The position numbers were made by a program, and so were the translations under genes. This document shows positions 10,394-14,517 of a stretch of 24,222 nt of DNA, in pieces. The notes beneath the pieces were generated by a model. The model did not search any database. It saw only the letters and a list, made by a program, of their open reading frames with translations, and was not told the origin of the DNA. Source of the DNA: a virus. Lineage: Duplodnaviria; Caudoviricetes. The DNA lies in IMG/VR virus record IMGVR_UViG_3300027798_000222, positions 1 to 24,222 of that record; one strand, given 5' to 3'. Numbering within the stretch: the first letter of the stretch is position 1; each line of letters begins with the position of its first letter.

Positions 10394-10552
10394 AGAAAAC
10401 CGCAGCGCTCTCGATTCAGTAGGCTGGGCGCTATTCCAGCTGCGTGGTTTCACATAGGCCGGACTCGCCGGTTCACGAGGCAAGGCATTGCTGCCAGCCT
10501 GCGGCAGTGCTTGTCGCCGTCTCTACTGAATCGAAAACGCTGTTCGTTTTCT
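10394..10552 (-). ncRNA. Long structured element (candidate ncRNA)
   Basis: TCGATTCAGTAG 10411-10422 pairs with CTACTGAATCGA 10523-10534; flanking pairs are G-U only on the minus strand. Confidence 0.4.
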
Positions 10553-10638
10553 GTCTTTTGCTGAGCCGGTAGGTTGGGCGTTCCCTGCGTGCTCCCGTAA
10601 CGAAGTTCGGCGCGAAGCCTGCCCGTTTTTCGCTGAGT

Positions 10639-10888: not shown

Positions 10889-11038
10889 GATGTTCTCTGA
10901 ATTGTGCGCGGCAGGACTCGAACCTGCAAGCCCGCCATGAGATGCAAACCCATTGGGCAGCACGTTTCGCATGGTTGCATACCAGCTACTATGCACCGCG
11001 TTTGCCAATTTCGCCACACGCACAATTCAAAGAACATC
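10889..11038 (-). ncRNA. tRNA-Leu-like RNA (core 10903-11023) with extended acceptor helix and aberrant anticodon and variable arms
   Basis: Acceptor GTGCGTG/CGCGCAC, D arm TGGCGAAATTGGCAAACGC, T arm GCAGGTTCGAGTCCTGC, no CCA. Confidence 0.7.
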
Positions 11039-11608: not shown

Positions 11609-11941
11609 ATGATAACATGCCCCTGCTGTAATGCCCGATTGGATGTAGATCTACCGCCCGACCGAGAACAGGCAAATAACCTCGTGCCAGAAACGGCGCA
11701 ACCGGCAGAGTCCGGTTCGCTGTGCAGCGACTGGGTAGCGGAACTGGGAGCCGTGCAAACTCAACTCGAAGACGCATGGACCGCGCTCTGCAAGCAGGAC
11801 TGGGGCGCGGCCACGCAGAATGTCTTCGATGTCAGGGCGAGCGTGACGAAGCTCGTGGAATCAGTGCGGGGCCATTCCGCTACCGCGGGCGATGAGCGAC
11901 AGCCTCCGCGCCCTGTGCGCCAAATTGGAGGACAGCCATGA
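11609..11941 (+). CDS. Cassette 1 hypothetical protein
   Basis: 110 aa, CPCC N-terminus; cassette inverted repeat GGTAGCGGAA 11734-11743 / TTCCGCTACC 11875-11884. Confidence 0.65.
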   Translation: MITCPCCNARLDVDLPPDREQANNLVPETAQPAESGSLCSDWVAELGAVQTQLEDAWTALCKQDWGAATQNVFDVRASVTKLVESVRGHSATAGDERQPPRPVRQIGGQP

Positions 11942-11975
11942 ACGCGGAGGATGTTCGCTCCATGCCATGTTCTGC
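11878..11975 (-). repeat. attC site (cassette 2), 98 bp
   Basis: Minus: GCAGAAC ATGGC ATGGAGCG AACATCCTCCGCG...CGCGGAGGCTGT CGCTCAT CGCCCGC GGTAGCG. Confidence 0.8.
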
Positions 11976-12171
11976 GTCGGCGCCGAACCGGAAGTGTATT
12001 TATTGTAAAGGGAAATATGAGCGAATCCAGCGGTGCCTCGTCTGCATGATCCACTTCGGCACTGGAGTCTGGACTCCGGCCACAAAGAGGACGCGCAAGA
12101 AACGCCAGCCGACGCAGAACGGGGAAGTCTCCGACACCGCCCAAAGCGGCGCATCCAATACGAGCCGATGA
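11938..12171 (+). CDS. Cassette 2 hypothetical Zn-finger-like protein
   Basis: CIYC...CLVC; ATGA coupling; inverted repeat 11969-11981 / 12108-12120 (13 bp). Confidence 0.6.
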   Translation: MNAEDVRSMPCSASAPNRKCIYCKGKYERIQRCLVCMIHFGTGVWTPATKRTRKKRQPTQNGEVSDTAQSGASNTSR

Positions 12172-12296
12172 GCCTACACTGCACACAATGCGATCGGAAC
12201 ACGGACTGCGGCATCTGCCCGCGCTGCGCAAGTAACCTCGCGCCCGAACCCGCGCGTCCAGACAAGGCGGTGTTCGCGAGCACTGACTGGGTAGGT
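12114..12296 (-). repeat. attC site (cassette 3), 183 bp
   Basis: Minus: ACCTACC CAGTC AGTGCTCG CGAACACCGCC...GGCGGTGTCGGAGACT TCCCC GTTCTGC. Confidence 0.7.
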
Positions 12297-12470
12297 GCGC
12301 TGGCGACACGCTGGGAGCGGAGACTGGCTGAGAGCAGCGGGACAACACGCGACGCTCTTGACTGTGGGCGAATACTCCAACTCAGAGAGTGCTGCGATGA
12401 ACTCCGCGCGGAGATGGAAAGCGCACCTACCGATGAAGCTCACCCGCTGACGGGGGACAAAACACAATGA
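12168..12470 (+). CDS. Cassette 3 hypothetical protein
   Basis: Start MSLHCTQC..CPRC at ATGA overlap; inverted repeat 12290-12301 / 12420-12431 (12 bp). Confidence 0.65.
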   Translation: MSLHCTQCDRNTDCGICPRCASNLAPEPARPDKAVFASTDWVGALATRWERRLAESSGTTRDALDCGRILQLRECCDELRAEMESAPTDEAHPLTGDKTQ

Positions 12471-12551
12471 ACACGCCCGCACTTCCAAATCAAAGCGGTG
12501 CTCACGCTGACAGCCATGACCGGCAGTTAGTGGTGCAGCGCCTTGTTCGGC
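12425..12551 (-). repeat. attC site (cassette 4), 127 bp
   Basis: Minus: GCCGAAC AAGGC GCTGCACC...GGTGAGC TTCATC GGTAGGT. Confidence 0.8.
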
Positions 12552-12721
12552 TATTGACTCTTGTGGAGCGGACATTCGTGGGCGACAAAGCAATCTCCGC
12601 GTGGGATAAGAATGAGCGTGCGATGCGGAAGAAATACGGCGTGCTGGCGTGGGGCACTTATGTCCCGATGCCAGCGGGGGAGCACCACTGGACAATGACC
12701 GTGGAGCGGACACTGAATTAG
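12467..12721 (+). CDS. Cassette 4 hypothetical protein
   Basis: 84 aa, ATGA coupling; inverted repeat 12545-12553 / 12719-12727. Confidence 0.6.
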   Translation: MNTPALPNQSGAHADSHDRQLVVQRLVRLLTLVERTFVGDKAISAWDKNERAMRKKYGVLAWGTYVPMPAGEHHWTMTVERTLN

Positions 12722-12825
12722 CCGAACGTCGTCTTCAGCGACGGCGCGAACGTAAAAAAACCGTGAATATGGAACAACCTATCGAACAACCGAAACCCGC
12801 CGTTCGCTCCAGTAAGCTGGTAGAT
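12721..12825 (-). repeat. attC site (cassette 5), 105 bp
   Basis: Minus: ATCTACC AGCTT ACTGGAGC GAACGGCG...CGCCGTC GCTGAAG ACGAC GTTCGGC. Confidence 0.7.
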
Positions 12826-13014
12826 GACTGGGAGCGGCGCTACGAAATAGCACACAGGGCCGAGATAAAGCTCCGCGATGACATAACCGCACTGAGGCGC
12901 GAACTGACCATCGTGAGCAGAGAGCGGGCGAGACTGTATCGCGAATACAGAGCCGCAAAGTCATCTACCGATGAAGCTCATGGACTGGCTGACAAAAACC
13001 TCTCGAAACCCTGA
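12763..13014 (+). CDS. Cassette 5 coiled-coil hypothetical protein
   Basis: GTG 12763 or ATG 12769 start; inverted repeat 12819-12829 / 12959-12969 (11 bp). Confidence 0.6.
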   Translation: MNMEQPIEQPKPAVRSSKLVDDWERRYEIAHRAEIKLRDDITALRRELTIVSRERARLYREYRAAKSSTDEAHGLADKNLSKP

Positions 13015-13082
13015 AACCCCTATGACAATCCCAACCGTAGAAAACACACATGAAGCCAGTTCCATGCAGCGCCTGGTTAGAG
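12963..13082 (-). repeat. attC site (cassette 6), 120 bp
   Basis: Minus: CTCTAAC CAGGC GCTGCATG GAACTGGCT...AGCCAGTC CATGAGC TTCATC GGTAGAT; two extrahelical bases. Confidence 0.9.
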
Positions 13083-13471
13083 GCTTCGTTCGTAGAATCT
13101 TTCGGTGGGTAGATGTTGCCATCCGTGAGCGCGACCAACTCGCCCAATACGCTCGTGAGCTAGAGTCCTTGCGGCGGCGGCGGGCGAGAGCGGCGCACCT
13201 CGCAGCACAGGCTGAGAAGGCAGCGGCCAACATCCGAAAGCGTGGACGCTCAGGATACATGGACCTCGAAAGCCGAAGCTACAAACGCTGGCGCAAATGC
13301 CGCGACAATTCCGAAGACGCAATCCGGCGGTGGCGGGAGGCGGGTAACGCGGCGAGCGAAGAACTCGCGCGCAAATTGGAAAGCGCCAAAGCCTCTAACG
13401 CAGAAGTGAGCGACCGCCGCGCTCACGCTCCAGAAAACAAAACAGGCGCGAACGGCGGTTCGCTCTACTGA
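13022..13471 (+). CDS. Cassette 6 basic helical hypothetical protein
   Basis: Likely start MTIPTVEN; inverted repeat 13076-13086 / 13389-13399 (11 bp). Confidence 0.6.
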   Translation: MTIPTVENTHEASSMQRLVRGFVRRIFRWVDVAIRERDQLAQYARELESLRRRRARAAHLAAQAEKAAANIRKRGRSGYMDLESRSYKRWRKCRDNSEDAIRRWREAGNAASEELARKLESAKASNAEVSDRRAHAPENKTGANGGSLY

Positions 13472-13481
13472 CTGGTTAGCC
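13393..13481 (-). repeat. attC site (cassette 7), 89 bp
   Basis: Minus: GGCTAAC CAGTC AGTAGAGC GAACCGCCG...CGGCGGTC GCTCACT TCTGC GTTAGAG. Confidence 0.85.
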
Positions 13482-13484
13482 ATT

Positions 13485-13706
13485 ATGAACACCGAAAGAG
13501 ACAACTGGAAGGACGTGACGGCGGAGGATGCGACCGATTCGGAACTGCGCCTCGTCCACAAAATCAGCGGCCCAAAGCCCGACTGGATGGACGCCGCGAA
13601 CTGGCGCAACAACATGAGGGCGTGCGCGAAGGACATCCGCCAGCACGTCGCGCTAATGGCTAACGATGGAACTCACGGACAGACCACTCACAACCCGACC
13701 ACATGA
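13485..13706 (+). CDS. Cassette 7 hypothetical protein
   Basis: 73 aa; inverted repeat 13475-13485 / 13654-13664 (11 bp). Confidence 0.6.
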   Translation: MNTERDNWKDVTAEDATDSELRLVHKISGPKPDWMDAANWRNNMRACAKDIRQHVALMANDGTHGQTTHNPTT

Positions 13707-13843
13707 GCACACCACTACGACACGGCTGCGCAGATCATATCTCAAATCCACAAGAGGACTGCGAATACTGCAAGGCAAGTAACCGCGTGCTTGAAGCGGC
13801 GCGTTCGAGTGAGGGGGCTGTTACGTGCAGTGACTTGGCAGCG
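13658..13843 (-). repeat. attC site (cassette 8), 186 bp, R'' core degenerate (GCC)
   Basis: Minus: CGCTGCC AAGTC ACTGCACG TAACAG...CTGTC CGTGAGT TCCATC GTTAGCC. Confidence 0.75.
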
Positions 13844-13987
13844 GAACTGGAAGCCGCGCTAGTGCGGCTGGGAGAGCTGAGACAAGGCACGTCCGAAGTA
13901 TGGGGGTGGGATGAAGAATGGACGTGTGTGCAAACTGCGCTGAGTAACGCGCTGGATCGGGAACGGAGCCGTTCCGCTACCGACTAA
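13703..13987 (+). CDS. Cassette 8 hypothetical protein (related to cassette 1)
   Basis: 94 aa, ATGA coupling; inverted repeat 13837-13847 / 13971-13981 (10 of 11 match). Confidence 0.6.
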   Translation: MSTPLRHGCADHISNPQEDCEYCKASNRVLEAARSSEGAVTCSDLAAELEAALVRLGELRQGTSEVWGWDEEWTCVQTALSNALDRERSRSATD

Positions 13988-14100
13988 GCTCACCTACCCG
14001 CTCCGGCGGAAACGGTGGAGCGCACGAAAACCAATCTATGAAAACAAACACATCGAACGCAGAACAACAGGAGCGGGTTAGGTGCAGCGCCTGGTTAGGG
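13975..14100 (-). repeat. attC site (cassette 9), 126 bp
   Basis: Minus: CCCTAAC CAGGC GCTGCACC TAACCCGCTCC...GGAGCGGGTA GGTGAGC TTAGTC GGTAGCG; textbook 5/6-nt spacers and two extrahelical bases. Confidence 0.92.
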
Positions 14101-14238
14101 CGCTTCGTCCGCACTCACGCATGGGCATTTGCACTTGGAGCGTCACTCGGAGTAATCGGGGTGAATTGCTACGAGTGGCGATACTGGGCCGTCTTCGTGC
14201 CGACACTAATCGGCGTGCTCCTGCGCCCTAACAAGTAA
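14038..14238 (+). CDS. Cassette 9 small membrane protein (2 hydrophobic segments)
   Basis: 66 aa; inverted repeat 14094-14103 / 14223-14232 (10 bp). Confidence 0.6.
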   Translation: MKTNTSNAEQQERVRCSAWLGRFVRTHAWAFALGASLGVIGVNCYEWRYWAVFVPTLIGVLLRPNK

Positions 14239-14244
14239 TTATAC
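14226..14244 (-). other. attI-like recombination site
   Basis: Minus: GTATAAT TACTT GTTAGGG, an L(7)-N5-R(7) simple site with no attC arm, at the end of the array. Confidence 0.55.
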
Positions 14245-14265
14245 GACTCAACTCAATACCGAAAA

Positions 14266-14517
14266 ATGAGCAAGTGGAGCACAATCAAAAACATACGCCG
14301 CGCGAGTCTAAAAGCTAGAGAGCGCGTGAACATCCGATGGAACCGCGTGCGCGCGGAGCAGGCAAAGATGGACGCAGCGCCGATGCCGTCACGCCGCATC
14401 GTGGAGCGGCACGTCGTCATCCGCGATGAGTGCCGCGTGCTCGAGGCTGTGTTTTACGCGGACGACCGGCCATGCGATATTCGCCGGAAGCTACGGACGC
14501 TGAAAGGCGTTTGGTAG
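14266..14517 (+). CDS. Basic hypothetical protein
   Basis: 83 aa, Arg-rich, directly after the array. Confidence 0.55.
   Translation: MSKWSTIKNIRRASLKARERVNIRWNRVRAEQAKMDAAPMPSRRIVERHVVIRDECRVLEAVFYADDRPCDIRRKLRTLKGVW

Follow-up and report, generated by a model that had tools for sequence, protein, structure and literature searches.

A cassette array in a phage record

The DNA analysed here (the window) is a linear virus record of 24,222 bases (IMG/VR record IMGVR_UViG_3300027798_000222; Caudoviricetes), which is estimated to be 44% complete and encodes an endolysin, a RusA-like resolvase, helicases and a methylase. Region 11609–14517, with ten open reading frames (ORF1–ORF10) on the + strand, is an integron-type cassette array in a phage record without an integrase, and comprises eight attC sites and an attI-like site at 14230. 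Each attC site spans an exit core and the next entry core, and is assigned to the − strand, as is the attI-like site. The exit cores lie at 11882, 12118, 12429, 12725, 12967, 13397, 13662, 13979 and 14230. Between 76 and 99% of the sequence words of the array region are present in 18 DNA runs, of which 16 are freshwater or lake metagenomes and six are flagged as possible sources of the record; two RNA-labelled runs contain 12% and 6%.

ORF1 (11609–11941; 110 amino acids, aa) has its entry core at 11734. An attC left arm was looked for upstream of ORF1 and not found, so that ORF1 is taken as an anchored or decayed first cassette; a sister genome (L222) carries another first cassette behind the same leader. 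The attC of cassette 2 (11878–11975), which has a 4-nt right spacer and falls below the detector cut-off, holds the ORF1 stop and the start of ORF2 (11938–12171; 77 aa; mobile unit 11884–12119). The attC of cassette 3 (12114–12296) is followed by ORF3 (12168–12470; 100 aa), whose unit, 12120–12430, recurs in another phage between other neighbours (L361; P0024). The attC of cassette 4 (12425–12551) precedes ORF4 (12467–12721; 84 aa; unit 12431–12726), which stops one codon before its core; relatives of ORF4 (P0008–P0010) have tryptophan at this stop position and read through the core. The attC of cassette 5 (12721–12825) has a mismatched L box and is likewise below the detector cut-off, and ORF5 (12763–13014; 83 aa; unit 12727–12968) has an alternative ATG at 12769.

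The attC of cassette 6 (12963–13082) contains the ORF5 stop (13012–13014), ahead of the ORF6 start. Gene callers begin ORF6 (13022–13471; 149 aa; unit 12969–13398) at 12971 or 12980. The in-frame ATG at 12971 lies four bases past core 5 and shares bases with a frame-2 TGA, and may offer a second socket to genes arriving in frame 2. The attC of cassette 7 (13393–13481) precedes ORF7 (13485–13706; 73 aa; unit 13399–13663), which consists of a domain of about 56 aa, of no known family, and a donated tail. Beyond the attC of cassette 8 (13658–13843), the body ends of ORF8 (13703–13987; 94 aa; unit 13664–13980) resemble those of cassette 1. The attC of cassette 9 (13975–14100) is the best formed, with an extrahelical T and C on the + strand 3′ arm; here the incoming frame stops two codons past the core, with no coupling to ORF9 (14038–14238; 66 aa; unit 13981–14231), a hydrophobic protein that ends in Asn-Lys (NK) on the attI-like site. 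This site (14226–14246), the fixed end of the array, has its crossover at 14231|14232 and also supplies a stop two codons past the core. The Arg-rich ORF10 (14266–14517; 83 aa) sits where the integron integrase IntI sits in other phage arrays; it has no family match and no Atlas match, and is conserved together with the attI-like site in seven relatives.

Pfam and PHROGs name none of ORFs 1–10, with the sole exception of a weak PIG-P match on ORF9, far below the cut-off. No Rfam family matches the array, no match was found in GenBank phages, homologue searches with ORF4 and ORF5 returned only their own clusters, and a sigma-70 promoter scan gave no site upstream of the array.

attC architecture and cassette orientation

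Every cassette body forms a terminal inverted repeat with its own exit, matching at 9–10 of 10 nt in 9/9 bodies; with the exits of other cassettes the scores are 2–7, except in the paralogous pair 1/8. The attC sites have a left spacer of 5–6 nt and a right spacer of 5 nt, with extra bases on the + strand 3′ arm. The detector passes six of the eight window sites, the other two (cassettes 2 and 5) being degenerate. It called no cassette in the remainder of the window, nor in any of 20 chance loci. A first pattern scan, with 20 matches and none of them in a cassette, served only as a chance control.

Extrahelical bases are described for attC bottom strands in the available text of PMC5027507, and excision of T-N6-C attC sites is reported in that of PMC3053210. 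Extrahelical bases on the + strand, taken with this published geometry, indicate that the + strand is the recombinogenic bottom strand. It follows that the genes are opposite in orientation to those of canonical cassettes and that R′ is the exit core. The sites have the anatomy of attC: an imperfect inverted repeat, R″-L″…L′-R′, with extrahelical bases on the bottom-strand arm opposite the AAC; an R″ complementary to the cassette's own first bases; and a crossover between the A and C of the R′ triplet, at 12119|12120, at 13663|13664 and in core 14230–14232. They do not have the canonical gene placement, on the top strand between the core and R″, as the genes start within attC and cross R′. With two or more attC sites and no neighbouring intI, the array belongs among the phage clusters of attC sites lacking integron integrases (CALINs), and is unusual in keeping an attI.

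The mobile unit extends from the C of one exit core through the first two bases of the next. It starts with its own attC. The left arm of this site is a mini-frame that lacks a start and whose stop falls on or close to the start codon of the unit, which is located in the hairpin loop. As the incoming gene gives AA or AC and the next unit gives the C, the join always encodes Asn or Thr, followed by a short hydrophilic tail. The core, whose GTT/AAC form counts as invariant in integron attC sites, reads ACC at four of the nine exits (11882, 12429, 12967 and 13979), with matching GGT or GGC entries, as against AAC in 117/117 bodies of the broad viral set described below; L361 also has ACC. The second core position is tolerant for IntI1 according to the accessible part of PMC2811028, and from its distribution the ACC core is read as a lineage-specific variant. 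An ATC core variant is suggested by a contig of run X17, in which the join to the attI site has AT ahead of the C at 14232.

Where a long ORF is open on one strand only, it is inverted in 23/26 viral cases, as opposed to canonical in 8/10 bacterial cases (P = 2e-4, with a small control). The bacterial control comprised 16 cassettes in 8 loci of 132, its size reflecting a detector that fits phage-type spacing. The right-arm motif of the array also occurs in many bacterial genomes, with Verrucomicrobia and Planctomycetes prominent among the 80 matches listed. Four viral loci (L053, L124, L156 and L185) hold a few cassettes with a canonical-strand frame open across the body and none reaching the core inverted; these are possibly of host type.

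One reading frame at the exit cores

The sequence-only reading of this DNA proposed that the frame is fixed at every crossover point. In the window, the AAC or ACC of all nine exit cores is a codon of its ORF's frame (frame 0), with ORF4 stopping one codon earlier, and the nine contexts that had been quoted are all present. Entry cores use all three frames, as had also been noted: the eight inside ORFs fall in frames 2, 1, 2, 0, 2, 0, 2 and 2, and the ninth (13475) precedes the ORF7 start. A null of one-third per frame was rejected, the measured in-frame share being 55–58%. In 13 ordinary window genes A[AC]C is already a codon at 269/462 places, so that 9/9 has a P of about 0.008 and not 3^-8. 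It is the homologous arrays, not the 9/9 of the window, that carry the statistical weight for the frame rule.

Four pattern scans yielded 198 viral loci, in which 158 high-confidence cassettes were called by DNA features alone; the scan with the attC6 pattern gave 3 real sites among 21 loci. Removal of the window (its own record, L221, was excluded from the relatives) and of duplicates left 117 distinct bodies in 43 loci. Of these bodies, 43 were set aside (16 without an open frame and 27 with several) and 74 were kept for the frame count. Crossing in frame 0 was found for 58 of the 74; 2 terminate in frame 0 immediately ahead of the core, 13 end on a TAA that overlaps the core, 1 crosses in frame 2 and none in frame 1. 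The prediction that the frame would be fixed in homologous arrays was thus borne out by 58/59 crossing ORFs (P about 2e-14 against 133/242). The rule holds throughout 35/36 loci, which may be related to one another, and entry frames in these arrays are even (26/27/21). Cassettes that stop on the core's own TAA (13/74) constitute a second allowed class.

Two pairs of loci carry near-identical attC sites before unrelated bodies: L108 198–314 and L156 3314–3431 (96%), in which an indel after the shared start retunes the frame, and L099 2895–3017 and L128 3002–3124 (93%).

Exchange of cassettes between sister genomes

Sister genomes L223 and L226 agree with the window as far as 13665, then carry three and one non-window cassettes, respectively, and rejoin it at 14230. 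L361 carries cassette 3 from 12120 to 12432, its upstream gene supplying AC where the window has AA; this difference places the cut before the C, which is the point stated for IntI in the available text of PMC7439510. Furthermore, four runs not flagged as sources contain contig loose ends at 13665, 14229, 14230 (two runs) and 14232 (both sides). Contigs of three of the four break at 13664–13665 or 14229–14232, and in three of the four a contig joint falls on 13664. One loose end encodes a longer ORF9 tail, as in P0021, corresponding to an extra cassette between cassette 9 and attI. Judged from these alignments, the exit cores are the crossover points, and sister genomes exchange cassettes exactly at AA|C (13664, 14232 and 12120). 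The natural variants comprise insertions and replacements; no pure reordering of cassettes was seen among them. In near-identical exchange pairs, an indel retunes the entry frame.

Entry cores were considered as the main mode of crossover and rejected on the evidence of L361, L223 and L226, though right-arm exchanges occur.

Compound cassettes are present in L223 (907–1692), L226 (86–1089), L360 (3869–4965) and L362 (4236–4965), which have segments of about 60 nt in common with one another at each end of the body, flanking different middles; two of the middles encode MT-A70 methyltransferases. Even so, the core is crossed by a short frame-0 ORF located at the 3′ end. Compound cassettes possibly represent a second type of site nested in the first, or a template from which cassettes are made.

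The attI-like end and the integrase

No hairpin follows the last exit core (14230); instead, there is a site that is conserved behind different cassettes in 9/9 related loci aligned. An integron-integrase-like gene begins just past such a site, on the gene strand, in five of seven viral loci checked (the TIGR02249 match is above cut-off for L165 and just below it for L146), and the other two have no IntI match in the DNA examined. Positions 14226–14246 are read as attI, where IntI would bind. The window thus has an attI site but not the adjacent intI of a complete integron. A full-length IntI match is present in 6/35 array-bearing records; among near-complete ones, 2/10 have an IntI match and 8/10 have none.

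These observations bear on the view that the sites are decayed integron remnants, with variation generated by homologous or micro-homologous phage recombination between similar arms, without IntI. The lack of a detected integrase in the window and its five closest relatives would fit, as would two degenerate attC sites out of eight, a deletion crossing within the right arm in L067/L071 and the hybrid first site of L222. However, most sister-genome breakpoints fall on the core triplet without flanking homology, and coexisting variants differ at the attI end, which makes this the least probable of the explanations considered.

Stop placement and probable translational coupling

The sequence-only reading listed stop/start overlaps of the form ATGA (11938, 12168, 12467 and 13703) or GTGA (12763), and all five are present among the eight junctions. 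It omitted the three junctions without overlap, which have gaps of 7 nt (13014 to 13022), 13 nt (13471 to 13485) and 50 nt (13987 to 14038). In the relatives, reading a cassette's own attC in frame 0 leads to a stop within that attC in 70/74 cases (median 12 aa). This stop overlaps the cassette start in 39/74, compared with 6 and 4 in frames 1 and 2 (Fisher 3e-9), and lies within −1 to +20 nt of a start in 58/74, compared with 14 and 21. None of the eight frame-0 readings in the window overruns the next start, compared with 5 and 3 in the other frames.

It had also been claimed that any cassette order preserves coupling. When joins were permuted in silico, the upstream ORF remained intact in 73/73; for joins to another cassette, strict overlap was retained in only 36/64, and a start lay within −1 to +20 nt in 50/64. 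Shuffling is frame-proof, but only partly coupling-proof.

It is proposed, with a probability of roughly two in three, that the region is an array of integron type in which the attC bottom strand carries the genes and these cross in a single frame; in this scheme IntI, likely provided in trans, would add cassettes at the attI-like site (14230), and the common frame likely lets each gene end cleanly and passes its ribosome on to the following start. IntI would catalyse the swaps and would be supplied by the host or a co-infecting phage, and transcription would run toward attI. Ribosomes would terminate and re-initiate at ATGA or GTGA, thereby keeping the transcript translated through the hairpins. 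The frame itself may be a convention held by frequency-dependent selection, a shared frame being favoured because genes that crossed in either of the other frames would frequently run past the following start.

Several observations weigh against this proposal. Strict overlap occurs at only five of the eight window sites, and the overlap at 12763 receives no incoming ribosome in this genome, as the early stop of ORF4 leaves whatever follows it uncoupled. A folding proxy gave coupled starts no greater occlusion than uncoupled starts (0.47 vs 0.49; n = 38 and 30; p = 0.78), and the start codons are themselves predicted. A version of the accessibility test in which the left arm is forced open is circular for overlapped starts and was given no weight. 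At attI, the used frame stops 27 nt ahead of ORF10, whereas the unused frame 1 would overlap the ORF10 start. The window, at 44% completeness, has no tyrosine recombinase (PF00589) match and no integrase was found in the five closest relatives (45–79% complete), so that the enzyme is one that we infer. Lastly, some exchanges lie in the right arm or at an entry core (L067/L071, L108/L156, L099/L128 and L222), which implies that other recombination also reshapes the arrays.

Alternatively, the frame may be kept only for the near stop that it provides and be passed on whenever old cassettes serve to build new ones, with re-initiation incidental. The 35/74 cassettes without strict overlap and the equal occlusion of coupled and uncoupled starts are consistent with such hygiene at termination, as are the presence of AAC in frame at 55% of places in ordinary genes, the several sister cassettes that share both ends around different middles, and the frequency of ATGA overlaps in the phage's ordinary genes. 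It accounts poorly for the concentration of overlaps in the used frame relative to the other two. Moreover, 3′ ends are common to only 4/123 bodies in the broad set, which means that derivation from a single template fails to account for the frame. This alternative is regarded as unlikely, and re-initiation within an IntI-built array is preferred.

Donated C-terminal tails

As the sequence-only reading anticipated, the same protein occurs with different tails donated by its neighbours. Seven different tails follow the Asn/Thr of ORF7, on evidence from L223, L226 and five further members of the cluster, these last being known as protein only and in some cases from short contigs. Relatives of ORF3, ORF4, ORF6 and ORF9 carry other tails, giving each of these proteins two or more in all, and one protein family in other phages has three. 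The sequences diverge right after the Asn/Thr. The tails are hydrophilic, with a median length of 12 aa, are rich in A, P, R, D, E and T and poor in aromatic residues, and have no common end; at attI they are reduced to NK, NQ or TK. The tail of ORF6, which is the frame-0 peptide of the cassette 7 attC, also ends four unrelated database proteins (P0003–P0006).

The C-termini are thus combinatorial as sequence, but show no sign of function. If the tails were functional variable C-termini, such as degrons or localisation or binding tags, their variation with the neighbour and the presence of one tail on five unrelated proteins would be explained; their shortness and composition, their reduction to two residues at attI and the loss of the ORF4 tail would not. 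The ORF7 domain (about 56 residues) stops short of the crossover and is present either joined to unrelated ends or free-standing (L225). A functional role is therefore improbable, and from their sequences the tails look dispensable rather than functionally combinatorial; under the proposed mechanism, they would be tolerated by-products.

In the shufflon, recombination inside pilV changes the C-terminus in frame, by inversion with the system's own recombinase, and swaps folded functional domains. The phage array has in common with it an in-frame C-terminal change by site-specific recombination, but uses insertion/excision sites, and its variable ends are not conserved functional domains: they are short and apparently dispensable, and may be lost or shrink to two residues.

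Relation to known systems

Integron cassettes are taken to hold their gene inside the cassette, facing away from intI. The phage cassettes resemble canonical ones, as presented in the available text of PMC4889954 and PMC5027507, in attC anatomy, in core complementarity within the cassette and in the A/C crossover in AAC; in relatives, attI also lies next to intI. They differ in that the genes are on the opposite strand (viral 23:3 inverted; bacterial 2:8), start inside attC and cross R′. The phage cassette genes point toward attI and intI, so the newest cassette lies farthest from the promoter.

Phage CALINs with methyltransferase cargo were described by Qi et al. in 2023 (PMC9892861), and tested attC sites recombined with IntI1. 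These are likewise attC clusters in phages without an integrase; the accessible portion of that article makes no mention of translation, inverted genes, a frame rule, coupling or phage use of attI. One phage from that study, TJE1, has a canonical array. MW202573 appears by eye to share the inverted design, unremarked, with four annotated ORFs ending just past an in-frame AAC and one on the core TAA, although the detector called no sites in it. The attC1 of P12002L is on the gene strand but lies between genes. In TJE1 (L367 77–280 and 318–1046), two annotated genes continue through R″, with AAC as an in-frame codon, and end within their own attC.

A known translational parallel is ORF-11 of attI1, whose stop comes from the inserted cassette, and the hairpin is relieved by short ORFs within attC (PMC8876359, available text); poor cassette translation destabilises downstream mRNA (PMC11511950, available text). 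Taken together, these would make the phage mechanism plausible by analogy. As for ORF-11 and ORF-18 of attI1, where a crossover-spanning frame takes its stop from the inserted cassette and couples translation, the phage array has its stops provided from beyond the crossover, on or close to the following start (with overlap at 5/8 junctions in the window and 39/74 in relatives). The difference is that ORF-11 and ORF-18 encode a leader peptide at one site, whereas in the phage array the cargo gene itself crosses, at nearly every junction and on the opposite strand. The attC sites designed to encode protein (Nivina et al. 2020; PMC7439510) are also both recombinogenic and translated; these are synthetic and, in the text available, without a shared frame convention or coupling, whereas the phage sites are natural. 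No description of inverted, frame-fixed phage cassettes was found in the open-access literature, subscription papers being outside the scope of the search.

A phage population thus swaps cassettes with single-base precision inside coding sequence, under a frame rule common to dozens of viral contigs and with no integrase detected in the vicinity. This points to phage use of a bacterial gene-capture system that is wrongly annotated or missed by attC finders, and it explains recurring short tails on hypothetical phage proteins. The arrays also offer natural material for two questions, namely how cassettes are made and how translation governs array expression.

A broader and tentative possibility, held with less confidence than the mechanism proposed above, is that phages run their own mirror-image cassette pool on the host integron integrase. 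Under a universal frame rule, every phage cassette could insert at the attI of every phage, with immediate translation, and the reversed polarity would serve as a firewall, with host cassettes, including anti-phage ones, silent at a phage attI and phage cassettes silent in a host integron. If so, the same attC on different bodies, together with small indels that retune the entry frame, would represent cassette genesis in progress.

Other features upstream of the array

On the − strand at 10903–11023, there is a tRNA-like match to RF00005 (38 bits; E = 1e-5) with an insertion of about 50 nt, inside a 20-nt inverted repeat (10889–11038); ARAGORN makes no tRNA call at this match. A hairpin similar to that at 10889–11038 lies at 10403–10542, and a 25-nt repeat is present at 10636 and 11154.

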